Notes under the pieces: generated by a model | Seen by the model: only the letters and a program-made list of their open reading frames with translations | Databases searched by the model: none | Told to the model about the DNA's origin: nothing | Origin: Candidatus Thorarchaeota archaeon | Lineage (GTDB): Archaea > Asgardarchaeota > Lokiarchaeia > Sigyniarchaeales > SOKP01 | Assembly (NCBI GenBank): GCA_048883105.1 | Contig: JBHLQY010000002.1 | Location: 1 to 60,564 of the forward strand | DNA length: 60,564 nucleotides | Direction of reading: 5' to 3' | In this document: positions 15,008 through 58,183 of the stretch, one piece after another | How positions within the stretch are numbered: position 1 is the stretch's first letter | Layout: each line of letters starts with the position of its first letter | Made by a program: the position numbers and the translations under genes

Positions 15008-15088
15008 ACATAAATATATAAATACTTAAGAAATATATAATTTAGGATATATATATAATTAATATAACTTTGTTTATTTGGTGTTGTA

Positions 15089-18683: not shown

Positions 18684-18695
18684 AATTTTTCAATT

Positions 18696-20138
18696 CTAAC
18701 CAATAATTTGGCCCCAATCTGAGAACTCAATAATTTGTTGAAAATTTTTGGCCATGCTTACAAACATTACACATCCAATACAAAAAATATTTACAAAATC
18801 ATCTATGGATAAATTCAAGAGCTTACTATTATTTTCGGAAACTCCTTGGCCTCGTTCAACTTCTATGACTCCATCAAATCCAGATAAATTTACAACAAAT
18901 TCTTGTTTGTCTAAAGTTCCATGATAACTGCCTCTTGCTATTCTTGCTAATCCCCCAATTGGGATAATTTTTCCATTTATCTGAGACATATAAATCCTTA
19001 AATCGAAGGTGTGTTTGCCCCCTTTCCAGTCTATTAAAGAAAAATCAGCCATTTCTTGGATTGTGTATGGATAGGGATTTCGATTTTTCATGAATTTCGC
19101 AAAAAATTCTTTCTTACTCTCCTCTATTAGATTTTTAATATTGGATGGATCTTCGTCTGGAGATATCGGAAGGACTCCTGCTCCCCCAGAACCGCCATCA
19201 GGCTTAATTATAAAAGGTTTTTTATATTTTTTTATGATATATCCCAATTTTTCTATTAATTCACTCTCATTATAAGCTTTTGTAAATAGAAGATATTTTA
19301 AATTATACTTTTTAAGGATGTCCTTAGCAAAATAACTTGCTAAATAAGTTAGCGATTTATCATCCGTAACTCGATAAATAGGATTAACGATAATTGTGTG
19401 AATTTTTCGAAAATCTTTTCTTATTAACTGAGTAAACACATCATTTTGAAACCGACGCGCAATACCATCTCCTATAAGAACGCTAATTTTAGAAACCTCT
19501 TGAAATTTGAACCAATTTTCTGAAAAGGATAAAGTTGTGGATAACTGCTTGTAATCAGCAATTAAAAACGCAACGTCAACATTGAAATCCTCTTTAAAAT
19601 TGTTAACATTAAATATATCTACCGAAAGCTCTCTTTTTCTTATTTTTTTTCTTAAATAATCAATCAATATAACTTTTTCGTGGATTAAACCATCATCTAT
19701 CGGAACTCCAACAAGAACAAGAACTTTATTATCTCCACGCGTATTGTTTTTAATAGCTTGAGAAATAGCTTCAAAATATCCATTATACATAATAGTTTGT
19801 TGTTTTTTTGTGAGGATGGAAAGCCCGCGATTTGAACCGCCATTAGTCTCCAAAAGAAAAAATTTCTTTCCTCCTGGCTCATCACACACCATAAAATCAA
19901 TACTGCCAGCATAGAATAAATCGTTGTTGCTTAAGTAGTTATCTTTATCTCTTTCCATCTTCCTCAAAGCTTTTTGCCTAACAGCATCAGCAAAATTATC
20001 CTCTTGAGACGCTCTTAAATCAGCAAATAGTACTAGATCTAATCCTAAGGATTTTCCTAAATTAACTAAATCTAAATCTGAGTCTGATATTTCTTTAGAC
20101 ATCAGCTTCACGAATTTAGAGAGCTTATTATCATCCAT
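18696..20138 (-). CDS. ATP-grasp amino-acid/peptide ligase, TTL/YheCD-like, apparently circularly permuted
   Basis: - NPIYRVTDDKSL at aa 252.
- Phosphate loop FIIKPDGGSGGAGV at aa 309.
- FDLRIYM at aa 378.
- GGLARIARG at aa 395.
- An E-x-N type segment, FFLLETNGGSNRG, lies at aa 93-105 instead of at the C-terminus. Confidence 0.7.
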   Translation of the reverse strand: MDDNKLSKFVKLMSKEISDSDLDLVNLGKSLGLDLVLFADLRASQEDNFADAVRQKALRKMERDKDNYLSNNDLFYAGSIDFMVCDEPGGKKFFLLETNGGSNRGLSILTKKQQTIMYNGYFEAISQAIKNNTRGDNKVLVLVGVPIDDGLIHEKVILIDYLRKKIRKRELSVDIFNVNNFKEDFNVDVAFLIADYKQLSTTLSFSENWFKFQEVSKISVLIGDGIARRFQNDVFTQLIRKDFRKIHTIIVNPIYRVTDDKSLTYLASYFAKDILKKYNLKYLLFTKAYNESELIEKLGYIIKKYKKPFIIKPDGGSGGAGVLPISPDEDPSNIKNLIEESKKEFFAKFMKNRNPYPYTIQEMADFSLIDWKGGKHTFDLRIYMSQINGKIIPIGGLARIARGSYHGTLDKQEFVVNLSGFDGVIEVERGQGVSENNSKLLNLSIDDFVNIFCIGCVMFVSMAKNFQQIIEFSDWGQIIG

Positions 20139-20172
20139 AAAATCACAAGAGAATTTCTTTTTAACAAATAGC

Positions 20173-21405
20173 TTATAAATATAAATAACCTTGATGATTT
20201 CCCTTTATACTAAGCCTTAAACTCCCCAATAAGATTTTTTTGACTTTTATTTGCTCTTTATAAGATAAATCAGAAAATATTAATATATAGTTTTTTTCTA
20301 AATTTATAACAAATAGAAGTCCTATTTTTATCAATTTTGAATCCTTGTCAAGCAATGAAATTATCACATAGTGATAAGGGAGTTTAATTAATTCGCTAAT
20401 ATCAATCTCTCTTTCAATAATTTCGTTAGTCTCAGTATTATAATCAGACTTTACAAATTTAATATCATTCAAAGAAATAGAGATTTTTCTATAATCCTTT
20501 AAAACCTTAGCAAATTGACTTTGCCTTAAAAATCTTCTTTCTTCCTTATCCTTTTCGTAAAAGTATTTATTATCTTCCTTAATTAAATATACTTTTCTAT
20601 CTTTTCTTAATCTAGCGATTTTTACTATAGTTTTTAATTCTTTAATTGTATCATCGTGAAATACGATTAAAATATCAGGATTTATCATTTCGATAAAAAA
20701 ATTTTTATATATGACACCTGCTTCTTGCTTTATCCAGCCATCCGTATCAATTAATACAAAATTAGTGTCTATATGATTTCTTATATACTCATCAACTAAA
20801 TTCTTACAATAATGCGACACTATAAATTTATAATTTCCTTTTGGAAATGTGGCTCCTATAAATACTGTGCTCTCTGAATCAATATCTTCGCCGGAAATAA
20901 TCGAATCCTTAATTGTTCCAATATTAAGAGTAGTTGGCAAATACATTATCTGTTGTCCTAAATCAGAATCAAGATAACCTCCTTTAAATCCCTCCTTAAG
21001 GAAACTATTAGCTAAATATTTGATTATAGTTGTTTTTCCACTACTAATCCCCAAAACCATAATTTTTAATGGTTTTCCCTCTTTTTCTTTAAATTCTTCT
21101 AAAATGGCATTCTTAATTTCAATCCATCTGTTAGATATCGAATTTTCCTTAATTAATTTAAGACTTTCTTTTTCGTTAGATGTATATATCTCTAATTTTG
21201 ATTTTTCTAACGCAAATAACGGGTAATGATTAGCACTAGGAATAATTATGACGTAGTCTTCATTAAATTCTGAAAAATCTAAATTTGAACTTTTTTTATC
21301 TGGAAGAATTGTTTTTCCAAGTACTTCTAATTTTCCTTCTAATAAAGTTATTCTCGTCGGCCCTTTTACTAACAGCGTATGTCCTTTTTCGATATTTTTA
21401 ATCAT
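20173..21405 (-). CDS. clp1: Clp1/Grc3-family polynucleotide 5'-hydroxyl kinase
   Basis: - The N-terminus LLVKGPTRITLLEGKLEVLG is typical of the Clp1 N-domain.
- The P-loop is LGISSGKTT.
- LDSDLGQQ matches the Clp1 DxDxGQ motif. Confidence 0.75.
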   Translation of the reverse strand: MIKNIEKGHTLLVKGPTRITLLEGKLEVLGKTILPDKKSSNLDFSEFNEDYVIIIPSANHYPLFALEKSKLEIYTSNEKESLKLIKENSISNRWIEIKNAILEEFKEKEGKPLKIMVLGISSGKTTIIKYLANSFLKEGFKGGYLDSDLGQQIMYLPTTLNIGTIKDSIISGEDIDSESTVFIGATFPKGNYKFIVSHYCKNLVDEYIRNHIDTNFVLIDTDGWIKQEAGVIYKNFFIEMINPDILIVFHDDTIKELKTIVKIARLRKDRKVYLIKEDNKYFYEKDKEERRFLRQSQFAKVLKDYRKISISLNDIKFVKSDYNTETNEIIEREIDISELIKLPYHYVIISLLDKDSKLIKIGLLFVINLEKNYILIFSDLSYKEQIKVKKILLGSLRLSIKGNHQGYLYL

Positions 21406-33905: not shown

Positions 33906-34844
33906 GTGATTTCATTGGAAAATGCTATAAAAATTATTATTAGTGGTTTAGACAACGCTGGTAAGACTTCTATATTAACAGCTTTAGATAAAAAATTTGA
34001 TTTTGAAAAAGAAATAATGCAATTGAAACCGACTGTCAAAGTTGAGTATAGTGCTTCGAATTTTTTAGGTAATAGGGTTTATTATTGGGATATGGGGGGC
34101 CAAAAACAATACAGAGAACTTTACGAAAAAAATAAAGATATGTATTTTGCTGGAACCGATTTACTCGTTTATATAATTGATATCCAAGACAAAGCTAGAT
34201 TTGACTTAACTTTAGAATATCTTAATACAATCTTAAAGTACTTTCAAAATAATGAAATGGAAAATGTACCTCTTATTATAAGCTTTCATAAGTTTGATCC
34301 ACAGTTAAGAGACAATGAGGAGATACTTTATAATATTAATGATTTAAGAGAAAAAATCTTAAAAGAAAATCCTAAATTCAAGATTTTGTTTCAACAGACT
34401 TCAATATATGATATTATTTCAATTGTTCAATTGGTTTCTTACGGGCTCTCTGTTTTTGATAAAGCGTTTTTTGAGCTGTCAATCCTTTTGGAGGATTATT
34501 TAGAAGAGTTTGGATGTTCTTCACTCATTCTATTTGATCAAAATGGAATAATTATAAGTGAATTTTATAGCGAGTTAATAGATTCAGACCATTATATAAT
34601 ACTCTTAGAAAATATTAAAGAACATCTGTTCTTATTAAAAAGAATGTTAGAAGAGGAAAAAACTGAATATAATTTCTTTACTATAGAAGATAATTTCTTA
34701 TCATATTTACATAGAGTAATATATAAAAAATATAATTACTACATTTCGGTTATAATTGAGGAAAATAAGAGAGAAACATTGTTGGAAAAATTTCCAAATT
34801 TAGTCGATGAGATATTTAATATATTCGATTCTTTATTTGCTTAA
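33906..34844 (+). CDS. Rag/Gtr-like (Arf-related) small GTPase with a C-terminal roadblock-like domain
   Basis: - G1 is GLDNAGKTS, G3 is WDMGGQ and G4 is HKFD (HKxD as in the Rag/Gtr family rather than NKxD).
- An extension of about 140 aa follows with an alpha-beta-beta-alpha-beta pattern (SLILFDQNGIIISEF...).
- GTG start. Confidence 0.7.
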   Translation: MISLENAIKIIISGLDNAGKTSILTALDKKFDFEKEIMQLKPTVKVEYSASNFLGNRVYYWDMGGQKQYRELYEKNKDMYFAGTDLLVYIIDIQDKARFDLTLEYLNTILKYFQNNEMENVPLIISFHKFDPQLRDNEEILYNINDLREKILKENPKFKILFQQTSIYDIISIVQLVSYGLSVFDKAFFELSILLEDYLEEFGCSSLILFDQNGIIISEFYSELIDSDHYIILLENIKEHLFLLKRMLEEEKTEYNFFTIEDNFLSYLHRVIYKKYNYYISVIIEENKRETLLEKFPNLVDEIFNIFDSLFA

Positions 34845-45410: not shown

Positions 45411-46571
45411 CTATTTAAATGTACGATGGCAATTTGGGCATCTTTTAAGACCAGACGTAATCATTTTATGGCAATAGGGGCATAACATAAATTTCCATTC
45501 ATCATCGCCAAATTCAGGGACGGGAACTTCTTCTGATTCATCATCTAAATTTCCAATACTTTCAAAAGTTTTTGGATTTGCCATAGGAGTTTCAGCAGAA
45601 ACAATTTTTGGTACCTCTCCAGCTTCTAAACTTATTAGATAATCGTGAATATCCTCCAGATTTTTTTCTGGCAAAATCTGTGCTAATTCAACTTTTTTTG
45701 CTAATTTCATTCTTTGTACAAAATCTTTGTCAAGTTTGATCAAGTTATAGCAGTTATGACATCTAAATACGTGAGATATTCCAATTGACGATTTCGAGGT
45801 CCACAGAGCCCAACAGGCCTTATGGGCTATAATATCGCAATTGGGGCACTTCACAATAGATCTATCATCTTTTTGAAAACATATTGAACAAACTTCTGGT
45901 TCTTCTATTTCTATAGGAATTTCTGCCAAATTTATGTAAAATGGTTGATTCTCAGGTGGAATAATATAATCCTTACCTTCGATTAAGGAATTCACTTCTA
46001 TTTCTCGTTTTAACGCTAGAAATTCTAACATATCAGATAATAAAGTTATACTATTTATTTCATGGATGCCTCCATTACATCTTCTCACTAAATTCATTAA
46101 TTTTGCATCTTCTTCATAATCATCTACATTAAGTCTAACTATATCTATAAAAAAAGGCATATCTTTAACTTGATCTATTAAATTTTCTAATACTGGCATA
46201 TATAATTTAGATATTTTAGGAGATCCAGAGTCGGTTAAAATAATTAAACGAAATGTTTTTTCTGAAATTTTTTTAAAAACATCAATAATAAATGAAATCG
46301 CGACAAATATACCCCCCCCTATATTTCCTCTTACAATCACGGGCTCTAATGACTTTAGAGCAATTAGAATATTTTCAGGATTTAATGTGAAGTTTTCGAG
46401 ATAATTTGGACCATCTTCTTGAAATAAAATAATGTTAAACCTACTACTTTCGTCAATCTTTTTCTTTATCTCGCAAAAATGTTCTAAGGCATTATAAACG
46501 AGTTCCATAAAAGTTACACCTGGCGTAAAAGCATTAAGTATTAATGTGTCCTCTGATCTAGTTTTTGCCAT
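45411..46571 (-). CDS. vWA-like domain protein with a C4HC3 (PHD/RING-variant) zinc finger and a C-terminal zinc ribbon
   Basis: - The N-terminal approximately 190 aa have a vWA-like strand/helix pattern (RFNIILF, RLIILTDSG, FIDIVRL) without a DxSxS MIDAS motif.
- The finger is C228-x2-C-x10-C-x2-C-x4-H-x2-C-x17-C-x2-C274.
- The zinc ribbon is C364-x2-C-x10-C-x2-C381. Confidence 0.6.
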   Translation of the reverse strand: MAKTRSEDTLILNAFTPGVTFMELVYNALEHFCEIKKKIDESSRFNIILFQEDGPNYLENFTLNPENILIALKSLEPVIVRGNIGGGIFVAISFIIDVFKKISEKTFRLIILTDSGSPKISKLYMPVLENLIDQVKDMPFFIDIVRLNVDDYEEDAKLMNLVRRCNGGIHEINSITLLSDMLEFLALKREIEVNSLIEGKDYIIPPENQPFYINLAEIPIEIEEPEVCSICFQKDDRSIVKCPNCDIIAHKACWALWTSKSSIGISHVFRCHNCYNLIKLDKDFVQRMKLAKKVELAQILPEKNLEDIHDYLISLEAGEVPKIVSAETPMANPKTFESIGNLDDESEEVPVPEFGDDEWKFMLCPYCHKMITSGLKRCPNCHRTFK

Positions 46572-46749
46572 ATTAAATTTTTCCTTTTAATAATCAAATT
46601 CTTACTGTCATTATTATCTATTTTTAATAAATAATTATATTCCAAAAAAGTTAATTAATTTTAGTTCTTTTTAATGAAGCACCTTAACAATTCATTATAA
46701 TATATTGATATTATACTTTTTTTTAAACTACTTTTATCCTTTTAAATTT

Positions 46750-46941
46750 ATGACTATAAAGGATGAATTTCAAAAAGAAATTAAGTTTTCGGACTATAAT
46801 AATAAGAGCTTGATGAAATATTATAATGATTTAGATAAAGCTGTGGCATCAAATAATGTTCAATCTATTTGGCAACTTTCAAAAATAATTACAAGATATC
46901 GTCTAAAATTCTTGGATCATAAAAATAAAAAATCACGTTAA
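46750..46941 (+). CDS. Hypothetical small protein
   Basis: 63 aa counted from the ATG at 46750; the ORF track uses a TTG at 46705. No motifs. Confidence 0.3.
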   Translation: MTIKDEFQKEIKFSDYNNKSLMKYYNDLDKAVASNNVQSIWQLSKIITRYRLKFLDHKNKKSR

Positions 46942-46959: not shown

Positions 46960-47286
46960 ATGAAATGGAAGATCTTTAATGAGAACAAATACCTAAAAAG
47001 ATTGGAAAAGACTCTTAGATTTCATGAATTATATAAGTTTGATAATAAAAAGATTCAGAAATGCAAATTCAAATTAATTTCTGAGCTCGTTCATGATTTG
47101 TTTAAGTATAAAAACTGCCGGGATTGCTTTATTAATATATCTAATTTAATAATATTGTTTTTAACGATTTTTGAAGAAGACTTGCCATTTGATATTTATT
47201 CAGGATATGACGACGAAATTGAGTTAATAGATGAAGATGTTGAATATAGAAATATATTAAGGGAAGAATTTAATGGATTTCTATAA
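46960..47286 (+). CDS. Hypothetical small protein
   Basis: 108-aa ORF with an ATG start and no motifs. Confidence 0.35.
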   Translation: MKWKIFNENKYLKRLEKTLRFHELYKFDNKKIQKCKFKLISELVHDLFKYKNCRDCFINISNLIILFLTIFEEDLPFDIYSGYDDEIELIDEDVEYRNILREEFNGFL

Positions 47287-47450: not shown

Positions 47451-48908
47451 ATGAGTGAGGCATTAAAACCTCGAGAATTACATGGAACAAAATTATTTGG
47501 ATATTCTGTAGGATTTTTTGGACTATTTTTAACTAATCTCTTAATTTCCGTATTTGCCTTTCAATTCTATGTTTACACAGTTAATTTAAATTCTTTAATT
47601 GTATCTATCGGAATTGCTATCCGCTTAATTCTTGCGGCTGTGTTTTCTATTGTTTTCGGGGTAATGACAGATAATAAAAAGCCGGGGCGTTTCGGAAAAC
47701 GGCGACCCTTTTTAATCTATGGATTACCTATTTGGGTTTTAACTAGTATCTTAATATGGCTCCCTCCTTGGTATGGTCCAAAGAATAATTCAATTTTTTT
47801 ACCTACAGCGATTTATTTTTGGATTATAATCATTTTAAATTCAATATCAGGAACTTCAATCTTGACGGCACACATATCAATGCTGCCTGAACAGGCTCAA
47901 ACCCATAATAACCGAAAGAGTGTAGCATCAATGAATACATTTTTCACCATTATTGCTTCAACTTTGGCTCTTTTACTCCCATTGATGATTCAGAGCATAC
48001 TTGAAGATCCAACCTCCGTTAAATGGTGGGAGCCTTCGGGAAAAGTAATCCTTTTTTATATGCCATTGATAGGAATCGCATTTGTTCTTTTTGGATTAAT
48101 TTCATTAATTTTAACATTTTTTTCTGTAGATGAGAGCTTTCATAAAACCTCTCAAAACGCTGAAATGAAAAAAAAATCAATTTTAGCTACTTTTCAACAA
48201 ATGGTAATTCCTGCCAAGGATAAAAAGTATAGAAAGTATCTGGCTGTACGATATTTTAATAGTTATGGAAGCAGAATTTTAGGTATTTTGGTTATACCTT
48301 TTCTTGCTTTTGTGCTCAAATTTAAGGGAAACGACTTTTATATTTATGTTATTGTTTCAATTTTCTGTAAGTTTGGATGGTTCTTTATTTGGAAAAAAAT
48401 TCTCGAAAAAGAAAAACATTCTTTTATTAAAATATATTCTCTATGTATTGCTAGCTCCGTAATAGCGTCATTCTTAGAGTTTTTTTTTTTAATTAATATT
48501 CTTTCTTTTGAGTTTAAAATTATTCTATTTGTCATAACTATAGGTACAGTATTGGGAGCTATTTATTCGTTTAGATTGTTTGCTACTCCCTTAGCAGGTA
48601 CGTTAGTTTACGAAGCTGCCTTAAAAGTTGAAAATAATGATAAAGATAAAGCTGTTTCTGAACTTTCGGGGGCTTATTTCGGTTTACAAACTTTTATAAT
48701 GTCTATTGGTCAAGCTTCAGCCACTATTATGATAGGAATTATTCTCATGGGACCAAATTCGGAGAATCCTATAATTATTACGCTATTATTATCTTCCATG
48801 GGCATTTTTTTCTTAATTAGCTTGTTAATTGTCGGACGAATTAAATTAGAAAAACCCATATCTGATATTGATACTTTTAGTATTGAAAGTAAAGAGATTC
48901 GAGAATAG
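47451..48908 (+). CDS. GPH-family (glycoside-pentoside-hexuronide:cation symporter-like) MFS transporter, copy 1
   Basis: About 12 hydrophobic segments. The loop 2-3 signature GVMTDNKKPGRFGKRRPFLIYG matches the D...G(K/R)RRP motif of MelB/GPH transporters. Confidence 0.8.
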   Translation: MSEALKPRELHGTKLFGYSVGFFGLFLTNLLISVFAFQFYVYTVNLNSLIVSIGIAIRLILAAVFSIVFGVMTDNKKPGRFGKRRPFLIYGLPIWVLTSILIWLPPWYGPKNNSIFLPTAIYFWIIIILNSISGTSILTAHISMLPEQAQTHNNRKSVASMNTFFTIIASTLALLLPLMIQSILEDPTSVKWWEPSGKVILFYMPLIGIAFVLFGLISLILTFFSVDESFHKTSQNAEMKKKSILATFQQMVIPAKDKKYRKYLAVRYFNSYGSRILGILVIPFLAFVLKFKGNDFYIYVIVSIFCKFGWFFIWKKILEKEKHSFIKIYSLCIASSVIASFLEFFFLINILSFEFKIILFVITIGTVLGAIYSFRLFATPLAGTLVYEAALKVENNDKDKAVSELSGAYFGLQTFIMSIGQASATIMIGIILMGPNSENPIIITLLLSSMGIFFLISLLIVGRIKLEKPISDIDTFSIESKEIRE

Positions 48909-49024: not shown

Positions 49025-50464
49025 ATGAGTGGACCTTTAGTTCCACGCGAATTACATGGAAAGCGACTAATTGGATACACTATAGGATATTTTGGATTAA
49101 ATTTAACGGACATTTTGAGAGCTGTATTTATCTTTCAATATTACGTTTATACCATAAATTTGAATTCAATTCTAGTTACTTTGGGGATGGCTATGTACTT
49201 AATGATTGCAGCAATATTTTCAATTGTTTTCGGAGTTATAACGGATAATAAAAAGCCAAGCAAACTTGGAAAACGTCGTCTTTTTTTGATCTATGGATTA
49301 CCTATTTGGTTTTTAACAAATTTTTTAATTTGGCTTCCTCCTTGGAAATGTCCAAGAACAAATTCCATGTTTTGGCCGACTGCTATCTATTTATGGATTA
49401 TACTTATTTTAAATGCAATATCATCAATGTCAATTTTAAGCTCATACGCTTCAATGGGACCAGAACAATCTCAAACACATAGAAACAGAGAAAAAGTTGC
49501 ATCTGTAGCAACTATTTTATCAATCATCGCATCAATACTGGCCTTATTATTACCATTATTAGTTCAAAGTCTTCTAATAGATCCAGAAAATGTTAAATGG
49601 TGGGAACCTTCAGGAAAAGTGATACTTTTTTATATTCCTATAATAGGCGGTTTATTCGCTATTTTTGGATTTATTTCCATAATATTAACTTTCTTTTCGG
49701 TAGATGAAAGCTTTCATAATATCTCCCAAGAAGCTGAAATAGAAAAAAAATCAATTTGGGCTACTTTCCAACAAATGATTATGCCGGCTAAAGATAAAAA
49801 ATATAGAAGGTTTATTTTAGTGGGATTTTTCACTACAATATCTACCCAAATGTTAGGTATTCTGATTATACCTTTTCTAACTTATTCACTCAAATTTAGA
49901 GGTACTGACTATTTTTTTTACGTTATTATTTCATTCTCATGCAAATTTGGATGGTTTTATATTTGGAAAAAAATACTTAATAAATTTGCGGTTATTAAAA
50001 CATATTTCATTTGTATTGCTTCTTGTGTTATTGCATCATTATTAGAACTTTTCTTTTTGGTTGAGGTTTTATCTTTTGAGTTTAAAATTATAATATTCAT
50101 TATTACTGTAGGTACAGTTTTAGGATCTATTTATGGATTTGGATTATTTATTGGTCCAATAACTGCTGCATTAATTTATGAAGCAGCAGCTAAAAATGGA
50201 AATGAGATAACAGATAATGCTGTTTCTGAAATTTCAGGGGCTTACAATGGATTACAATCTTTTTTATTGTTTATTTCTCGCGCTATTGCCTCAATTTTGA
50301 TTGGATTTATTCTCTTTGCCCCTAACGAGGAAAATCCAATAATTATTACGATTGCTATGTCTTCAATGGGAATATTTTTCTTGATTGGGCTAATATTTCT
50401 CAGAAAAATTGAATTAGATGAGAATATCCTTAATATAATACCTTTAAATAAAAGATATAATTAA
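49025..50464 (+). CDS. GPH-family MFS transporter, copy 2 (tandem paralogue)
   Basis: Colinear with copy 1 along its whole length, roughly 60 percent identical by eye. Shared blocks include KWWEPSGKVILFY, LTFFSVDESFH and AKDKKYR. Confidence 0.8.
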   Translation: MSGPLVPRELHGKRLIGYTIGYFGLNLTDILRAVFIFQYYVYTINLNSILVTLGMAMYLMIAAIFSIVFGVITDNKKPSKLGKRRLFLIYGLPIWFLTNFLIWLPPWKCPRTNSMFWPTAIYLWIILILNAISSMSILSSYASMGPEQSQTHRNREKVASVATILSIIASILALLLPLLVQSLLIDPENVKWWEPSGKVILFYIPIIGGLFAIFGFISIILTFFSVDESFHNISQEAEIEKKSIWATFQQMIMPAKDKKYRRFILVGFFTTISTQMLGILIIPFLTYSLKFRGTDYFFYVIISFSCKFGWFYIWKKILNKFAVIKTYFICIASCVIASLLELFFLVEVLSFEFKIIIFIITVGTVLGSIYGFGLFIGPITAALIYEAAAKNGNEITDNAVSEISGAYNGLQSFLLFISRAIASILIGFILFAPNEENPIIITIAMSSMGIFFLIGLIFLRKIELDENILNIIPLNKRYN

Positions 50465-51124
50465 ACTAAATTTTTTAAGGCTTTATTAACTCTAAATACC
50501 TTATTAACTCTGTCAATTATAATAAATCGTCTAATTTCCAAATAATATAAAAAGTCGCGCATCTGACTTTTATTTTTACCTAATTTTTCTGCCAATCCTC
50601 TAATGTCAGTTTCATAATTGCAGAGAGTTCGTATAAGTTTTTTGTATTTTTTAAATATTTCACCTACTAAATATTTTAAAGATTCTTTTATATTAAGTCC
50701 AGTTTTTATACTTGAGGGGAAAATTTTACAATCTTTAGGTAATTTATTTTTAGCTTGCACCACTGCAGCTGAGCGTGCACCCATCAAATCTTGCTTATTA
50801 GCTAAATAAACTTTTGGAGCCTTCGGGTTTATTATTTCCCCCAATATTGATATAGCATCATTATCGGAGTCGGGATTAGTAGCATCAAAAATAAAAACAA
50901 TTCCATCAGCTCCATTTGAAATAATCTTTCTCATTACTTTAAATCTTGAAAGACCAGGCGTGCCAAACAATGTTATTTGGAATCCATTGAAATTTATGCT
51001 AGCTACATCCATCGCGACAGTTTTCCCTCCTACTTGTACGTTCAAAGAGTTTTTATCAAAATAATTTAAGTAGCTTGATTTTCCGCATTGCGACGCTCCC
51101 GTTACTACAATCTTTATCCCACAT
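50461..51124 (-). CDS. MglA/CvnD-like small GTPase fused to a C-terminal winged-helix domain; the 5' end needs a 1-nt frame correction or a non-canonical start
   Basis: - The ORF-track protein has G3 LFGTPG, G4 NKQD, G5 SSIKTG and the wHTH-like tail IRGLAEKLGKNKSQMRDFLYYLEIRRFI.
- The P-loop KIVVTGASQCGKSS is encoded in the same frame upstream (51114-51073).
- In that frame no ATG, GTG or TTG lies between the TGA at 51126-51124 and the P-loop.
- The ATG at 51124-51122 is offset by one base. Confidence 0.65.
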
Positions 51125-51571: not shown

Positions 51572-54500
51572 ATGAATAATAGTAATATTTTAATTATTGG
51601 CGGAGGTATCAGTGGTATCGAAGCCGCGCTGTCTTTAGGTGAACAAGGATATCGAGTTATATTAGTTGAGAAAACTCCAAGTATTGGTGGTCGAATGGCA
51701 CAATTAGATAAGACATTTCCTACTTTAGACTGCAGCATTTGCATTTTGGCTCCCAAAATGGTCGAGGTCGCTCGTCATCCTAATGTAGAACTGTTGACCT
51801 ATTCGGAAGTCCAAGAAGTAACAGGGAAAGCCGGTAATTTTAACGTGAAGATCTTAAAGAAATCTCGGTATGTAGACATTGAAAAATGCACAGGCTGTGG
51901 TGCATGTGTGGAAAAATGTCCTATGAAAAAAATTCCTTCGGAGTTTGAAGAAGGGATGGGTAACCGTAAAGCAATCTATATACCATTTCCACAAGCCGTC
52001 CCACGTAAAGCTACTATAGACGCAGAAAAATGCTTATATTTAACTAAAAATGCCTGTCAGCTCTGTGAAAAAGAATGCGAGGCTGGCGCTATAGTATGGG
52101 ACATGAAAGATGAGGTTGTAGAATATAATATTGCCTCTATTATTATTGCTACAGGAATTGACATTTTAGATCCTAGTGTTTTGACTCGTTACCATTATGA
52201 TGAATATCCTAATGTCATCACGGCAATGCAATACGAAAGGCTATTGAGCGCTTCTGGTCCAACTGAAGGCGAACTCTTACGACCATCGGATCAAAAACAT
52301 GCACACGAAATTGCATTTATTGGATGCGTCGGATCCCGAAATGAATCAATATGTTCATATTGTTCAAAATTTTGTTGTATGTATATGGCGAAGGAGGGAG
52401 TTGTAACGCGTGAACATTCTCCAGATACGAACATTACGATTTTCTTCAACGATATTAGAGTAATTGGAAAAAATCAAGAAGAATTTATTGAAAGAGCGAA
52501 AAATGAGTATGAGTTAAAATATTATCGCGGGATTCCTGGTGATGTACGAGAAGATCCAGAAACTCGCGATCTATTAGTTAAGCACGCAAATTTAGACACT
52601 GGCGAAGTAGAAACAAGCAGATTTGATTTAGTAGTGTTGGGAAGTGCCGTAATTCCTCGAAGAGATAGCGAGCAATTAGCAAAAATCTTAGGAATAGAAA
52701 CAAACGAGTTAGGATTTTTCAAAACTAAAAATTCCCTTGAAGATTTACAATCTACTCAAGAAGGTATTTACGTAACTGGATGCTGTCAATCCCCTGATGA
52801 TATAGCCAATTCAGTAGCTAAAGCCAGTGGAGCTGCTGCATTAGCTTCACTTCACGCTGAACCATTAAGTGAAGAAGAACAAAGAATTGAATTGCCTCCA
52901 TTGAAAATAGTCAATGAAAGTGATAAACCAAGAATTGGCGTATTTATTTGTGAATGTGGTGTAAATATTGGTGGATATATGGATGTTCCAGAAATAGTAG
53001 AATATACAAAAACTCTTCCCGATGTAGTATTTGCGATGCATAATAAATATAGTTGTTCGAGTTTGACTCAAGATATTATAAAGGAAAAAATTGAAGAGTT
53101 GGATTTAAATCGAGTAGTAGTTGCTGCGTGCACCCCAAGAACACACGAGCCTTTGTTTCAAAAAACTATACGAGAGGCAGGTTTGAACGAATATCTTTTT
53201 AATTTTGTAAGTATTCGAGAGTTAGATTCATGGGTACATATGAATGAACGCAAAAAAGCGACTGATAAGGCAAAAGATCTAATTCGAATGGGTGTTGCAC
53301 GTACGAGATTTTTAAGACCCGAATTAAAAATAAAAGGAGATGTAGTTCCTGAAGCATTGGTTATTGGCGGGGGTATTGCGGGAATGACGGCAGCCATGGA
53401 AATTGCTAATAAAGGATATAAGGTTCATTTAATTGAAAAAGATGATAAATTAGGTGGTCAACTAAACCTTATCTATATGATTAATTTTGATCGGATAGAT
53501 TCTGAAGAATACTTAGATGTAAAACTTAATGAGTATAATCAAATAAAAAATATCTCAACTTATTTAAATTCTGAAGTTTCAGATGTAAAAGGTTCAATAG
53601 GTAATTTCAATATTAAAGTTAAAAATAAAGTTAAAAACAAAGTTACAGATTTAAATGTTGGTGTAATTGTCGTTGCGACAGGTGCTTATGAATATAAACC
53701 AGAAGGTTGGTATCATTATGGTGAAGATCCTCGTATAATGACGCAATTGGAATTATCTGAGAAATTAAGGAATAATGAATTAAAAAGTGGGGAGGAAATA
53801 GTATTTATTCATTGCGTCGGTTCGAGACAACCAGAAGGAGGCAAGGGATATACATATTGTTCTCTAATCTGTTGTTCTGAATCTATTAGACATGCATTAT
53901 ATGTAAAAGAAAATTATCCAACATCTAATGTTTATGTACTTTATAGAGATATCCGTGTTGGGACTGATGAAGAATCTTATTATTGGCAAGCTAGAGAGAA
54001 TATCAATTATATAAGATTTAATGAATACCCTGAAGTAGAACTTACAAATGGAAAAATCGATGTTAAGGTAAAGGATATCTTGACCCAAATTACACTTAAT
54101 ATTGATGCTGATCGAGTTGTATTATCAACACCATTGATACCATATGATAATAAATTACTCTCAGAGTTACTTAAAGTACCACGTGATCAAAATGGATTCT
54201 TTCTGGAAGCTCATGTTAAATTACGACCAGTTGATTTTGCAACAGATGGGATCTATCTTGCTGGGACTGCTCATGGTCCAAAAGGTATCGCAGACTCGAT
54301 ATCTCAGGCAAGGGGTGCTGCCGCTCACGCTTTAATACCATTAATTTCAGGTATAGTCGAAAATGAACCGCTAGTTTCTGTTGTTAATCCCTCATTATGT
54401 ATTGCTTGTCAAAAATGCGAAGAGGTTTGTAATTTTGGAGCTATAGGCGTCAATTTTGATAACGAAAAATTAGTTTCTGAATCAAATCCACTATTGTGTA

Positions 54501-55057
54501 AAGGATGTGGTGATTGTTCTGCGGCATGTCCAACAGGAGCGATTACTATGAGTCATTTCGCAGATGATCAATTGACACCAATGATTTCTGAAGCATTAAA
54601 AGGAGAATTTATTGATGAAAGACCACGAATTGTTGCTTTCCTTTGTAATTGGTGTAGTTACGCTGGAGCAGACACGTGTGGTGTAAGTCGATTTCAATAT
54701 CCAACAAATATTCGGCCTATAAGAGTAATGTGTACTGGAAGAATTCCAAAAAGTTTTGTATTGCGAGCATTTCTAGAAGGTGCTGACGGAGTATTTGTTG
54801 GAGGCTGTCATATTGGAGATTGCCATTATCTGGAAGGCAACTACGATATGTTACGACGATATAATGAAATTCAAGAAATCCTTGAAAAAGTTGGAATTAA
54901 TCCCGAGAGATATCATCTTGAATGGGTCTCAGCCAGCGAAGGAAAACGATTTTCTGAAGTTATTACCGATTTTGTTGGCAAGGTGAAAGAATTAGGGCCA
55001 ATTGCCGAAAGGGGTGATAAAATTGAAAAAAAAGAAGAAGCTAAGGAGGGAGCTTAA
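51572..55057 (+). CDS. hdrA: Heterodisulfide reductase subunit A-like flavoprotein: tandem HdrA modules fused to a C-terminal MvhD domain
   Basis: - Two dinucleotide motifs are present: IIGGGISG at aa 8 and VIGGGIAG at nt 53361.
- Each is followed by an HdrA Cys cluster (CVGSRNESICSYCSKFCC and CVGSRQPEGGKGYTYCSLICC).
- There are four ferredoxin-type CxxCxxCxxxC motifs.
- The C-terminal RIVAFLCNWCSYAGAD...GGCHIGDCHY is the MvhD signature. Confidence 0.9.
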   Translation: MNNSNILIIGGGISGIEAALSLGEQGYRVILVEKTPSIGGRMAQLDKTFPTLDCSICILAPKMVEVARHPNVELLTYSEVQEVTGKAGNFNVKILKKSRYVDIEKCTGCGACVEKCPMKKIPSEFEEGMGNRKAIYIPFPQAVPRKATIDAEKCLYLTKNACQLCEKECEAGAIVWDMKDEVVEYNIASIIIATGIDILDPSVLTRYHYDEYPNVITAMQYERLLSASGPTEGELLRPSDQKHAHEIAFIGCVGSRNESICSYCSKFCCMYMAKEGVVTREHSPDTNITIFFNDIRVIGKNQEEFIERAKNEYELKYYRGIPGDVREDPETRDLLVKHANLDTGEVETSRFDLVVLGSAVIPRRDSEQLAKILGIETNELGFFKTKNSLEDLQSTQEGIYVTGCCQSPDDIANSVAKASGAAALASLHAEPLSEEEQRIELPPLKIVNESDKPRIGVFICECGVNIGGYMDVPEIVEYTKTLPDVVFAMHNKYSCSSLTQDIIKEKIEELDLNRVVVAACTPRTHEPLFQKTIREAGLNEYLFNFVSIRELDSWVHMNERKKATDKAKDLIRMGVARTRFLRPELKIKGDVVPEALVIGGGIAGMTAAMEIANKGYKVHLIEKDDKLGGQLNLIYMINFDRIDSEEYLDVKLNEYNQIKNISTYLNSEVSDVKGSIGNFNIKVKNKVKNKVTDLNVGVIVVATGAYEYKPEGWYHYGEDPRIMTQLELSEKLRNNELKSGEEIVFIHCVGSRQPEGGKGYTYCSLICCSESIRHALYVKENYPTSNVYVLYRDIRVGTDEESYYWQARENINYIRFNEYPEVELTNGKIDVKVKDILTQITLNIDADRVVLSTPLIPYDNKLLSELLKVPRDQNGFFLEAHVKLRPVDFATDGIYLAGTAHGPKGIADSISQARGAAAHALIPLISGIVENEPLVSVVNPSLCIACQKCEEVCNFGAIGVNFDNEKLVSESNPLLCKGCGDCSAACPTGAITMSHFADDQLTPMISEALKGEFIDERPRIVAFLCNWCSYAGADTCGVSRFQYPTNIRPIRVMCTGRIPKSFVLRAFLEGADGVFVGGCHIGDCHYLEGNYDMLRRYNEIQEILEKVGINPERYHLEWVSASEGKRFSEVITDFVGKVKELGPIAERGDKIEKKEEAKEGA

Positions 55058-55059
55058 AA

Positions 55060-55596
55060 ATGACTGAAGAAAAAACTATGAGTTCAAAAGAATTAGACCA
55101 TGATTTGAGATACGAAATTAGCAATAAAGTAGGTGCAAAATCTTTATTGAAATGTATTCAGTGCGGTGTGTGTAGCTCTGGATGTACCGTATCAGAATTT
55201 ATAGATTTGCAACCTCATAGAGTCGTTGCTTCACTCTTGTTAGGTCTAAAGGATGTTATTTTATCAAGTAACGCAATCTGGACTTGTTCTCTTTGTCATA
55301 GATGTACTGAAAGATGTCCAAAAGGCGTAGATTATTCTTTTATTTTAGCTTTAATAAGGAATTTAGCTGTCAAAGAAGGAAACATTCCATCAGAATACAG
55401 TGATACGATTAAAGTAATTAACAACAATGGATTTGTCGTCCCATATCACGGGGGATTAAAGAAAACCATTGATCGAAGAAGAGAAAAATTTGGCTTACCT
55501 ATTGTAGAACCACCAAATCTTGAAGATATCACTTTCATTATAAAAGAAACTGGACTTGAAAATATAATTAAAAAAGAAATGGAGGATGAAAAATAA
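55060..55596 (+). CDS. hdrC: Heterodisulfide reductase subunit C
   Basis: CIQCGVCSSGC and CSLCHRCTERCPKG. 178 aa, located between hdrA and hdrB. Confidence 0.85.
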   Translation: MTEEKTMSSKELDHDLRYEISNKVGAKSLLKCIQCGVCSSGCTVSEFIDLQPHRVVASLLLGLKDVILSSNAIWTCSLCHRCTERCPKGVDYSFILALIRNLAVKEGNIPSEYSDTIKVINNNGFVVPYHGGLKKTIDRRREKFGLPIVEPPNLEDITFIIKETGLENIIKKEMEDEK

Positions 55597-56486
55597 TGGA
55601 ATTCGCATTATTTTTAGGATGTACAATCCCACTTCGGTTTCCGCATTTTGAAAAAGCATTCAGGGAGATCGCGAGTATTTTAGATATTAACTTAAAAGAG
55701 ATGCACGGTGCTAGCTGTTGCCCTGACCCTGTAGCAACCCAATCATTAAGCGTAGATACTTGGTTAACCATCGCTGCGAGAAATTTATCCATAGCTGAAA
55801 GAATGGGTTTGGATGTCTTGACAATTTGTTCAGGATGCTATGAAACACTTAAAACTTCCTATGTCCTTCTAAAAGAAGATAAGGCTGCATTTGATAAAGT
55901 CAATTCTGTTTTAAAGAAAATTGGATATGAATATAAAGGAACATCGACAGTTACGCATTTTGTTGAATTATTTAGTAGACAAGATATGCTTGATAAAATT
56001 AAAGTGGCCACTATGCAACCATTAGATGATCTTAATGTTGCTGCACATTATGGATGTCATTTAATAAGACCAAGTAAAATTCTGAGATTTGACCACCCTG
56101 AACGACCAGAAACAATGGATCTAATCTTAGAAACTTTAGGAGCTACGACTGTTGCCTTTGCATCTAAATTAGAGTGTTGTGGATATTGTGCTAGATTAAA
56201 CGAAGATATTGGATTTAAATTAGTTGAAGAAAAAATGACTGACTTGAAAGAACTTGAAAAAGAAGTAGATGTTATGGTTGCTGTCTGTCCAGCATGCGTG
56301 AGTCAGTATGACAGAAAGGAAAAATTGATCTCAAGAAAAAGTGACAAAGAGCTTGATATCCCTGTACTTTACTTACCTGAATTAATAGCATTAGCTTTTG
56401 GTGTCGATAGCGGAATTTTAGGTTTATCAAATAGAAGTGTGAAACCTACAAAACTACTAGAAAAATTGAATATAAAAACAGAATAA
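55596..56486 (+). CDS. hdrB: Heterodisulfide reductase subunit B (two CCG domains)
   Basis: CCG motifs ASCCPDP and ECCGYC. The ATG overlaps the hdrC stop codon (TAATG). Confidence 0.85.
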   Translation: MEFALFLGCTIPLRFPHFEKAFREIASILDINLKEMHGASCCPDPVATQSLSVDTWLTIAARNLSIAERMGLDVLTICSGCYETLKTSYVLLKEDKAAFDKVNSVLKKIGYEYKGTSTVTHFVELFSRQDMLDKIKVATMQPLDDLNVAAHYGCHLIRPSKILRFDHPERPETMDLILETLGATTVAFASKLECCGYCARLNEDIGFKLVEEKMTDLKELEKEVDVMVAVCPACVSQYDRKEKLISRKSDKELDIPVLYLPELIALAFGVDSGILGLSNRSVKPTKLLEKLNIKTE

Positions 56487-56489
56487 TAA

Positions 56490-56496
56490 TTTTTTT
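56490..56496 (+). terminator. Short oligo-T tract between hdrB and metV (possible partial terminator or attenuation point)
   Basis: TAA at 56484-56486 is followed by taa ttttttt. Confidence 0.25.
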
Positions 56497-56546
56497 AAAA
56501 ACATAAAATAAAACTTAAAAATTTAAAGAAAAAAGTGTGAAAAAAG

Positions 56547-57245
56547 TTGATTATTACAGAACTAAAAGATATTGATGAAATATACAATATGATAAGACCA
56601 TATTCAAAAATCTTAATAGCTGGCTGTGATGGCTGTTGTCAGCCTCCTCGCTCGATTAACGAAGCAAAAGTACTTGGACAACTATTGGAACTAAAAGCAA
56701 AAACCGAAGGGAAGGAGTTAAAATGGAGATCAATCACTATTTTAAGGCAATGCGATGATAGAATTGCTGCCACCACAATACGACCATTCATAGAAGAGTA
56801 CGATGCAATTGTATCGTTAGCGTGTGGATTAGGTATTGTGATGCTAAATAAAGTAGCTGATAACATTATAACATACCCAGCCCAAAATAGCATGTGTGGT
56901 GGTGTTCAAAACGCAGGTGAAAACTATTTCATTCAATACTGTGAAACATGTGGCAGTTGTTTATTAGGAGAAACAGGAGGCGTTTGTCCTATCGCAGGGT
57001 GCGCTAAGCACTTAAATAACGGACCTTGCGGAGGTACTGTTGATGGAATGTGCGAAGTTGGGGGGTATACTCATCCTTGTGCTTGGATTGAAATTTATGA
57101 GAGATTAAAGAAGTTTAATAGACTGGATCTTTTTAATAAATACCGCCCACCAAGAAATTATAGACCTGCTACGAGTCCAGCATACCACATGATTAATAAA
57201 CCGTATACTAACGAAGAAGAAGAAAAAAGTGAGGGGAAAAAATAA
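56547..57245 (+). CDS. metV: Methylenetetrahydrofolate reductase small Cys-rich subunit (MetV-like)
   Basis: The Cys-rich pattern is GCDGCCQPP...CETCGSCLLGETGGVCPIAGC...NNGPCGG. TTG start, with an alternative ATG at 56589. It lies directly upstream of metF. Confidence 0.7.
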   Translation: MIITELKDIDEIYNMIRPYSKILIAGCDGCCQPPRSINEAKVLGQLLELKAKTEGKELKWRSITILRQCDDRIAATTIRPFIEEYDAIVSLACGLGIVMLNKVADNIITYPAQNSMCGGVQNAGENYFIQYCETCGSCLLGETGGVCPIAGCAKHLNNGPCGGTVDGMCEVGGYTHPCAWIEIYERLKKFNRLDLFNKYRPPRNYRPATSPAYHMINKPYTNEEEEKSEGKK

Positions 57246-58183
57246 TGGCAAAGAGACCTGCATATAGCAATTTGATGAAAGAGATAAGAGCTGGAAAATT
57301 TGTCTTTTCTGGAGAATTAGAACCCACAAAGATGTACGATATCCGTTCAGTTTTACATTCCGCTGAAGAAATGAAAAAAACTGGAAAGATAGTAGCTGCA
57401 AATGTAACTGACGGTCCACAAGGAGATGCATATACTTGTTCAATGGTCCCAAGTTACTTGGTTCAAGAAAAAGTAGGGTTAGAAGCAGTCTGGCAAATGA
57501 CTGTGAGAGATAGGAATAGAATTGCCTTATTTGGCGATGTTGTTGGAGGGGCAATCCTTGGACTTAAAAATATCCTCACTTTAACTGGTGATCATACGGC
57601 GTTAGGGGATAATAAAAACGCTAGACCCGTTTATGATTTGGATAGTACACAGTTCATTGAATTGGTGTCAAAAATAGTCGATGAGGGTACCGACTTGGAA
57701 GGCAAAGAAATCGAAGGTGGTAAAATTGAAATGAATATAGGATGTGCTGCAAATCCAAATGCGCGCCCACCATATCTTGAGCCCGAGATCCTTAAAGTAG
57801 GAAGAAAAGTTGAGGTGGGTGTCGATTTTATTCAAACGCAAACGGCATTTGACATTGATGAAGCAAAAGAATTCTTAAAAGAGCTAGAAAGATACGATGT
57901 TCCTGTGTTACTAGGCTTGTTTCCTTTGAAAAATTACGGTATTGCTTGGTACTTTGATAAATACATACCTGGCGTGAGTGTTCCAAAAGATCTTTTGGGA
58001 AAATTAAAATCCGCAAAAAAAGTTGAGAACAAAAAAGAGCGAAATGCTAAGATTGATCAAATTAACATAGATTTCTTTCTGCCATTTATAAACGAAATAA
58101 GGAAAACCACTAAAGCAGCTGGAATCCATTGTATGGCTGTCCATTATGAAAGACTGTTTGGACCGCTATTAAAAGATTTTTAA
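57245..58183 (+). CDS. metF: 5,10-methylenetetrahydrofolate reductase (MetF, acetogen type)
   Basis: FVFSGELEPTK, AANVTDGPQG, LTLTGDH and FIQTQTAFD. The ATG overlaps the metV stop codon (TAATG). Confidence 0.85.
   Translation: MAKRPAYSNLMKEIRAGKFVFSGELEPTKMYDIRSVLHSAEEMKKTGKIVAANVTDGPQGDAYTCSMVPSYLVQEKVGLEAVWQMTVRDRNRIALFGDVVGGAILGLKNILTLTGDHTALGDNKNARPVYDLDSTQFIELVSKIVDEGTDLEGKEIEGGKIEMNIGCAANPNARPPYLEPEILKVGRKVEVGVDFIQTQTAFDIDEAKEFLKELERYDVPVLLGLFPLKNYGIAWYFDKYIPGVSVPKDLLGKLKSAKKVENKKERNAKIDQINIDFFLPFINEIRKTTKAAGIHCMAVHYERLFGPLLKDF

Follow-up and report, generated by a model that had tools for sequence, protein, structure and literature searches.

A vWA-like protein with a RING-type C4HC3 finger in Asgard archaea and its possible role as an E3-like adaptor

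What might be the function, in an archaeon, of a protein that joins a von Willebrand factor A (vWA)-like domain to a C4HC3 zinc finger? The question is raised by a gene of a Candidatus Thorarchaeota archaeon (assembly GCA_048883105.1), located in the first 60,564 nucleotides (nt) of contig JBHLQY010000002.1. This whole stretch, with a G+C content of ~30%, is called the window below. A first-pass annotation of the DNA had described the product as a vWA-like domain fused to a finger of the plant homeodomain (PHD) or RING-variant type and to a terminal zinc ribbon, and had compared it with the p44/Ssl1 subunit of transcription factor IIH (TFIIH). Modelling predicts a soluble protein that binds three zinc ions, two in the finger and one in the ribbon, and the finger is predicted to be of RING type. 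A role as an E3-like adaptor is tentatively favoured and ranked first, at a likelihood which we place a little short of an even chance. The gene and the parts of its product are as follows.

45411..46571, minus strand: complete coding sequence of 386 amino acids (aa) plus stop codon, member of the vWA/RING-finger family (list of open reading frames (ORFs) and translation)
46002..46556, minus strand: predicted vWA domain, residues ~6-190 (AlphaFold2 (AF2) with predicted local distance difference test (pLDDT) values of mostly 80-94, Foldseek, hhalign)
45897..46001, minus strand: linker, residues 191-225, with a low-confidence loop (194-200) and a conserved helix with PFYxNLA that leads into the finger
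45732..45896, minus strand: predicted C4HC3 RING-type binuclear finger, residues 226-280 (ligand invariance, AF2, Foldseek, sub-threshold Prok-RING_1 match)
45627..45731, minus strand: two post-finger helices, residues 281-315 (AF2 helices 282-296 and 305-315; moderate conservation of 35%)
45498..45626, minus strand: disordered acidic linker of variable length, residues 316-358 (pLDDT <50)
45414..45497, minus strand: C4 zinc ribbon, residues 359-386, with C364 (45480-45482), C367, C378 and C381 (45429-45431) in the motif CPYC-x10-CPNC

Comparison of the window gene with a 95% identical orthologue in a related locus (L007) yielded a dN/dS of 0.17, indicating that the ORF is a genuine gene on which purifying selection acts. 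Among 5.8 billion proteins searched, 281 were homologues of the 386-aa protein at E<=1e-3; those named by source are all from Asgard archaea and the best one is from an Asgard metagenome-assembled genome (MAG). The 71 family loci from species-representative genomes are all Asgard MAGs, labelled mostly as Promethearchaeota (formerly Lokiarchaeota) and in some cases as Hod-, Hermod-, Thor- or Odinarchaeota, and several family paralogues occur per Asgard genome. With the family profile, an exhaustive search of 1.84 billion representatives gave 267 clusters at E<=0.001. Ten distant clusters were looked up, six of which were named: five as Asgard (Promethearchaeota, Helarchaeota) or with the uninformative 'hypothetical protein', and one as a MAG labelled Bathyarchaeota. 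As judged from these searches the family appears to be narrow, conserved and Asgard-restricted. Its members are annotated only as 'hypothetical' or 'VWA domain-containing'. Scans against NCBIfam and PADLOC gave no match and thus no support for a component of a defence system, an idea that was dropped.

The finger carries most of the argument. A scripted residue check returned exactly the eight ligands, the ribbon motif and the codon coordinates given in the first-pass annotation: C228 (45888-45890), C231, C242, C245, H250, C253, C271 and C274 (45750-45752), in the spacing C-x2-C-x10-C-x2-C-x4-H-x2-C-x17-C-x2-C. An alignment of 51 family sequences, with identities as low as 45%, shows no variation at any of the eight ligands, at W257, F269 and R270 or, in the PFYxNLA helix that leads into the finger, at F211, N214 and A216. 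A wider alignment of 46 relatives, with identities as low as 17%, keeps seven of the eight without exception and C253 in at least 90%. Because of this invariance in the family and its relatives, the pattern is most unlikely to have arisen by chance. The full-length AF2 model, built from the 51-sequence alignment, has a mean pLDDT of 76.8 and reaches ~90 in the finger region, and a model of residues 210-300 alone reaches 94.9. In both models secondary structure assignment (DSSP) gives the same order of elements: a knuckle with C228 and C231, a hairpin with C242 and C245 at its turn, an 11-residue helix (251-261) that starts from H250 and C253 and bears the invariant W257, and a knuckle with C271 and C274. 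The modelled topology is that of a binuclear treble-clef or cross-brace finger of RING type, and from the order of elements site 1 would be formed by C228, C231, H250 and C253, and site 2 by C242, C245, C271 and C274.

It might be argued that there is no cross-brace at all, and that the region holds two independent zinc ribbons or a chance pattern of cysteines. Pfam returned weak zinc-ribbon matches (DZR, Zn_Ribbon_1, Zn_ribbon_15), mostly on the C-terminal ribbon, and the pairing of ligands was deduced from the order of elements in the model rather than from coordinates. The invariance of all eight ligands, the confident model with its treble-clef order and RING matches, and the position of H250 and C253 at the N-terminus of the helix, as in RING site 1, make this explanation barely credible. 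Two independent ribbons, membership of a common prokaryotic zinc-ribbon family and an N-terminus of other than vWA fold were each looked for, and none of the three was found.

Whether the finger is of the RING or of the PHD class is answered differently by sequence and by structure. When the finger model was compared with the PDB using Foldseek, RING domains led the list with probabilities of 0.91-0.97. The RNF12 RING matched with a probability of 0.97 and a TMt of 0.61, and RNF165 likewise with a TMt of 0.61; the structures matched are RING domains bound to E2~ubiquitin. Further matches were Slx1, itself a C4HC3 RING, Deltex1, HOIL-1L and TRIM RINGs. The ligand spacing is that of PHD fingers. 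Of the Pfam models, the window protein scores best with Prokaryotic RING finger family 1 (PF14446), at 18.7 bits against a cut-off of 29.1 (E 0.0016); with zf-RING_16 it reaches 14.9 bits against 27.4. Among the 46 relatives, PF14446 is matched by 18 (best E 4e-6) and Pfam PHD by 19 (best E 5e-6). By sequence, therefore, the finger appears to lie between the RING and PHD classes.

A PHD-type reader, whose finger would recognise not an E2 but nucleic acid or a peptide tail (that of an Asgard histone, for example), would agree with the ligand spacing and with these matches of the relatives. The best PDB sequence matches of the family profile are also PHD fingers, at marginal values (ORC1b 0.0027, BRD1 0.016), and the invariant F269 is an aromatic residue two positions before ligand 7. 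However, the first PHD finger in the structure search is DPF3b, at rank 39 and with a probability of 0.18, the 11-residue helix with its RING-type Trp follows ligands 5 and 6, and the window protein scores 7.7 bits with Pfam PHD against a cut-off of 24. A PHD-type reader is considered highly improbable. Of the original label of PHD or RING-variant finger, the PHD-like spacing stands, but the structure search favours RING over PHD. The cross-brace had also been called typically eukaryotic. A RING-type topology is indeed predicted by AF2 and Foldseek, but C4HC3 RINGs are on record in prokaryotes (PF14446), and prokaryotic RINGs are described as C4HC3 in a review (PMC11354881).

In the AF2 model, residues 7-186 form an alternating beta-alpha, Rossmann-like fold of ~180 residues, which superposes on the vWA domains of Rpn10 and p44 with template modelling (TM) scores of 0.74-0.75 and root mean square deviations of 3.1-3.3 (Foldseek). 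The DxSxS of the metal-ion-dependent adhesion site (MIDAS) is replaced by LNAFTPG (family consensus NALTPG), and the Asp of beta4, D114, is the sole MIDAS residue kept. No Pfam VWA model appeared among the matches listed for the window protein at E<=10. Taken from the model, the N-terminal domain is probably a vWA fold without metal-ion site, which agrees with the earlier description of a vWA-like domain lacking DxSxS.

More distant members of the superfamily, P0222, P0257 and P0261 among them, keep a DxSRSM MIDAS loop. These MIDAS-type relatives exceed the Pfam thresholds, with 65 bits for VWA_2 and 59.6 bits for VWA, and their vWA domain aligns with that of the window family at 99.8% (hhalign, E 9e-29). 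Their first finger is homologous to the window finger and has an extra Cys pair, and a second C4HC3 finger is located at their C-terminus; the second finger of P0222 passes the threshold for zf-ANAPC11, a RING-H2 model (31.5 bits against 25). The first and second fingers are duplicate copies of a single module (hhalign 95.8%, E 7e-9). A profile of the MIDAS-type relatives also matches the RINGs of Arkadia, RNF13 and RNF4 at ~2e-5. For a narrower MIDAS-type alignment, 3 loci were found. The window family as a whole aligns with the MIDAS-type group at 100% (E 7.7e-48) over 356 columns, that is over its full length, and by these alignments it is a diverged, MIDAS-less paralogue of Asgard vWA-RING-RING proteins. 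In two loci (L078 and L080, 1-9257) MIDAS-type relatives lie on the same strand directly after genes for FtsX, a 1,300-aa BatD/TRAP_beta-like protein and a second FtsX, which hints at a link of that branch to a Bat-like membrane system.

The region behind the finger is less uniform. The acidic linker of residues 316-358, already recognized in the first reading of the sequence, is the least conserved segment (mean identity 25%). The C-terminal ribbon is modelled as a small two-strand element. In hhalign its CPNC falls on the last Cys pair of the second finger of the MIDAS-type relatives and its CPYC on the middle part, the Cys register of the CPYC pair differing between two alignments. Since it aligns with this second finger, the ribbon is most probably the reduced remnant of a second RING-type finger. 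It is absent from a subgroup of 337-349 aa. In ~10 related loci two true paralogues are direct neighbours; the one upstream, ~360 aa long, has a poly-Lys tail (8-12 K) in place of the ribbon, and its partner is 373-380 aa long. The upstream copies are found at the following positions.

L005 4115-5197: ~360-aa poly-Lys paralogue
L042 4694-5779: ~360-aa poly-Lys paralogue
L034 2398-3480: ~360-aa poly-Lys paralogue
~7 further loci: ~360-aa poly-Lys paralogues

The poly-Lys tail hints that these copies are tethered to another kind of partner, such as nucleic acid or acidic lipid, or that they form a heterodimer. Long forms of ~1,090-1,120 aa also exist (L019 2228-5494; P0124, P0126, P0130-P0133), in which vWA, finger and ribbon are followed by a Lys/Glu-rich extension of several hundred residues, probably a coiled coil, and then by a C-terminal domain.

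Two positions of the finger bear on the recruitment of an E2. The residue at C1+2 is Ile or Val and that at C6+4 is Trp in 51/51 family sequences; we take these to be the positions of c-Cbl I383 and W408, hydrophobic E2 contacts in RING E3s. The RING-type E3-like role is ranked first because of the RING-class structural matches, these fixed E2-contact positions and the RING-H2-like second finger of the relatives. The protein would be a non-enzymatic adaptor, in which the vWA domain would hold a protein partner without metal. The RING-type finger would recruit a second protein, most likely the ubiquitin-charged E2 of the Asgard ubiquitin system, by which the protein would become an E3-like ligase, and the tethered ribbon would supply a further contact.

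Several observations weigh against an E3-like role. The finger-only Foldseek E-values are all >0.04, and no Pfam RING or PHD model is over threshold on the window protein. Like the RINGs of RNF12, RNF165/Arkadia, Slx1 and ANAPC11, the window finger has a hydrophobic residue between ligands 1 and 2 and a Trp at ligand 6 +4. Unlike RING E3 domains, its ligands 3-5 are PHD-like (C-x2-C-x4-H), the usual Pro after ligand 7 is missing (C7+1 is His in 41 of the 51 sequences), and C8+1 is Tyr or Phe in all 51 and not the Arg or Lys known as 'linchpin'. No genes for ubiquitin, E1, E2 or JAB proteins were found in the window or beside the gene in 77 related loci; for E1, E2 and ubiquitin-like genes the first-pass annotation had reported the same of the window. 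A look for expression turned up no RNA runs with the gene, only DNA metagenomes (the DNA of the locus occurs in sediment, soil and mangrove samples). The proteins to which the full-length model is structurally closest, p44 and p34, serve as scaffolds and are not catalytic (Foldseek; PMC6422496). Separately, the idea of a ubiquitin operon was rejected, there being no ubiquitin, E1, E2 or JAB gene in these loci. In favour of the role, Asgard genomes, those of Lokiarchaeota included, encode a full ubiquitylation cascade, which in Lokiarchaeota is reported to be clustered elsewhere in the genome (PMC9192718).

Other proteins offer partial parallels. The window finger shares the C4HC3 ligand set with PF14446, a family that is tied to ubiquitin-like and JAB genes and often has membrane helices, and with which the 2011 work of Burroughs, Iyer and Aravind is reportedly associated; unlike that family, the window gene was seen with neither ubiquitin-like or JAB genes nor membrane helices. 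The plant vWA-RING E3s RGLG1/2 and WAV3 carry vWA and RING in one polypeptide, with a copine-type vWA, an intact MIDAS and a canonical RING. Rpn10/PSMD4, a ubiquitin receptor of the proteasome, the vWA domain of which has a TM score of 0.74 to the window model, is the top PDB sequence match of the MIDAS-type profile; it differs in having ubiquitin-interacting motifs and no zinc fingers after the vWA, and the window-family profile fails to reach it.

The strongest competing explanation starts from the likeness to TFIIH. In p44 (GTF2H2) a vWA domain is followed by an eZnF and a RING domain, and in its paralogue p34 by an eZnF; the RING of p44 attaches to the vWA of p34 and the eZnF domains lock into each other, holding both vWA proteins together (PMC6422496). 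The window protein may be a scaffold of this kind, devoid of ligase activity, whose finger and ribbon would grip the vWA of a paralogue or partner and which might build or regulate a larger complex, possibly around a helicase. Both proteins have a vWA followed by zinc modules, p44 with its RING-like module at the C-terminal end, and both would be soluble and non-enzymatic. The best PDB matches of the full-length model are p44/Ssl1 chains (8ebs_E, 4e-12 over 341 columns; 7o4i_6, 1.3e-11), and each of the first 26 Foldseek matches of this model comes from an entry that contains TFIIH. After p44/Ssl1 follow Tfb4/p34 (3e-10 and weaker), the inter-alpha-inhibitor heavy chain and the Rpn10 vWA; the named chains are the p44/Ssl1 entries and Tfb4 (7k01_4), the remaining p34/Tfb4 chains being presumed. 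The global TM score to p44 is only 0.42-0.45 because domain orientations differ. Entries of p44 with the vWA alone score more weakly (~3e-8); the match thus owes something to the zinc region as well.

In sequence, the likeness runs through the MIDAS-type relatives. Against 177,635 PDB sequences their profile finds Rpn10 best (8.7e-16, 61 bits) and p44 next (1.7e-14), the latter as three colinear stretches: the vWA, and two that do not reach significance singly, an 'FCPQC' segment and the RING-like domain at the C-terminus (341-389). When aligned with 45 vertebrate p44 sequences, a shallow profile of vertebrates only, the MIDAS-type alignment reaches 98.7% (hhalign, E 3e-16, 328 columns). By domain this comes to 97.9% (E 5.5e-13) for the vWA, 72% (E 3e-5) for finger 2 with the p44 RING-like domain and 10% for finger 1 with the eZnF. 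Many relatives have precomputed Pfam matches to Ssl1 and Tfb4, and three distant ones pass the Ssl1 (PF04056) threshold of 27 with 30.1, 30.7 and 34.3 bits. The adjoining paralogue pairs of ~10 loci are what a heterodimer would predict.

Against a p44/p34-like scaffold, the window family gives no signal with the same vertebrate alignment (0.6% overall, 1-5% per domain, and 2% for the window finger with the p44 RING-like domain), and finger 1 of the relatives hardly resembles the eZnF. PF04056 gave no match on the window protein, PF07975 (p44 RING-like) is absent among the matches of the window protein and its relatives, and the window protein and family profile have only marginal PHD, RING and BABAM1 matches among PDB sequences, with neither p44 nor Rpn10. 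No XPD/XPB-type helicase gene adjoins the gene in 78 loci or occurs in the window, where no second paralogue was found either. The fixed Ile/Val and Trp at the E2-contact positions are not present in the p44 RING-like domain. The two proteins also differ in that p44 keeps a DxSxS-type loop (DGSRTM), which the window protein lacks, in that the window protein has its C4HC3 RING-type finger first and its C4 ribbon last whereas p44 has a C4 eZnF first and a C4C4 RING-like domain last, and in that the window protein is without an XPD-binding N-terminal extension. The other non-helicase core subunits of TFIIH are not known to occur in archaea.

Bacterial proteins of the BatA type score about as well as p44. 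With the MIDAS-type profile the vWA of 4rck reaches 7.6e-12 (48 bits) and BatB 2e-8; in a homologue search with the MIDAS-type alignment, which scored 8000 candidates, gave 25 matches and cannot rank eukaryotic against bacterial outgroups, the BatA-type P0416 reached 3.5e-12 (64 bits). BatA and BatB share the signature DxSxSM...D..P.R with the MIDAS-type relatives; unlike the window protein they are membrane-anchored, have an intact MIDAS and carry no RING fingers. Because BatA-type domains score nearly as p44 does, the vWA is placed in a broad BatA/Rpn10/Ssl1 class and not demonstrably in a eukaryote-specific clade. The likeness to p44/Ssl1 proposed in the first-pass annotation accordingly holds as the top structural match and by way of the MIDAS-type relatives, but fails for the window family directly and is nearly equalled by BatA-type proteins; it is a matter of architecture and best matches, not of shown orthology. 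Ranked second, the scaffold is regarded as somewhat unlikely.

The surroundings of the gene raise a further possibility. ORFs were called and clustered in 78 loci. In the clade of the window the order is HdrA (-), small GTPase (+), target gene (+), PEPCK (-); in 6 window-clade loci a 399-aa GTPase (+) separates the target from PEPCK. In 13 loci the small GTPase is the immediate upstream neighbour and shares the strand of the target, with gaps of 45-142 nt and target proteins that are 50-63% identical to that of the window. In the window itself the neighbouring genes are the following.

46705-46941 and 46960-47286: two small unannotated ORFs, with the MFS genes between GTPase and target
47451-48908 and 49025-50464, plus strand: two paralogous MFS_2 sugar-transporter genes
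50461-51105, minus strand (also delimited as 50467..51105): small Ras/Arf-like GTPase (Pfam Ras/Arf), the syntenic upstream neighbour, 59% identical to the neighbour in L001
51572-58183, plus strand: HdrA-like 1,161-aa flavoprotein, ferredoxin-like protein, CCG-domain (HdrB-like) protein and MetV/MetF-like methylene-tetrahydrofolate reductase

The protein may act as an effector or regulator in a small-GTPase pathway, binding or marking the neighbouring Ras/Arf-like GTPase or its partners. This would fit the 13 loci with the GTPase upstream. It would also fit two loci with distant relatives: in L082 (4771-10560) an Arf/Ras-like GTPase with a 135-aa N-terminal extension immediately precedes the second of two MIDAS-type paralogues that are found within 5 kb of sequence, and in L085 a related GTPase is located 1.4 kb from the homologue. 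However, the adjacency is missing in the larger clade, where the target is divergent from an adjoining formylmethanofuran-dehydrogenase-like operon, after which come radical-SAM, GNAT or POR genes. The adjacency is also broken, by the MFS genes and the two small ORFs, in the window and in L007, whereas GTPase and target are adjacent in most relatives of the clade. Asgard genomes carry many small GTPases, so that adjacency by chance is not rare. No Sec23/24 or other GTPase-regulator folds were present in the Foldseek top 50. A GTPase-pathway role is held to be decidedly improbable, and a functional link of the syntenic GTPase to the target is uncertain. The readings as E3, scaffold, GTPase partner and PHD reader are not mutually exclusive.

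A Sec23/24-like arrangement of 'zinc finger plus trunk', considered because of the neighbouring GTPases, was rejected, no such fold being among the same top 50 matches. As to the small GTPase itself, an intact P-loop, GASQCGKS, is encoded in frame ahead of its listed ORF, and no ATG, GTG or TTG precedes this P-loop; the 5' end of the gene reflects either a non-canonical start or decay. Towards the C-terminus, a weak match to a CasR-like model points to a winged-helix tail. The synteny of the cluster at 51572-58183 with the target is kept in the clade of the window. Elsewhere in the window, a 312-aa GTPase with Pfam Arf and Gtr1/RagA matches (33906-34844, plus strand) is a eukaryote-like small GTPase of a kind typical of Asgard genomes. 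A 1,631-aa sensor histidine kinase (1702-6597, minus strand) has at least 9 PAS domains before HisKA and HATPase_c. At 12938-16054 (plus strand) an Eco57I/MmeI-type DNA methyltransferase of 689 aa precedes a 321-aa protein whose N-terminal domain is of MazE/AbrB type. The stretch 17523-21405 (minus strand) encodes a CLP1-type P-loop protein (20173-21405) and, behind it in the same orientation, two proteins without Pfam match, of 480 and 386 aa.

Both domains of the window protein are known, and so is the combination of vWA and RING-like fingers, in p44. To our knowledge, the non-helicase core of TFIIH (p44, p34, p62, p52) and Rpn10 have no recognised archaeal forerunners, and the literature searched revealed none. 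Full-text searches for literature linking Asgard archaea with Ssl1, p44, Rpn10 or vWA-RING proteins gave nothing relevant, and the main text of a 2026 structure-based survey of Asgard eukaryote-like proteins is silent on all of these. It may be speculated that the Asgard vWA-RING(-RING) superfamily is the stock of eukaryotic p44, p34 and perhaps the Rpn10 vWA, with adjacent paralogues already forming heteromeric scaffolds like p44/p34, a proposal that we consider clearly unlikely. The family is a concrete and testable candidate, in which a vWA of the Rpn10/p44 class and RING-type fingers occur in the order of p44 in Asgard archaea only. If a phylogeny were to put the Asgard family sister to p44, p34 and Rpn10, its interest would rise sharply. 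The RING proteins for which the Asgard ubiquitin system has chiefly been noted so far are small and have their genes in the ubiquitin cluster; should the finger turn out to be a RING that binds an E2, this system would gain with the family an E3 of the substrate-adaptor type.

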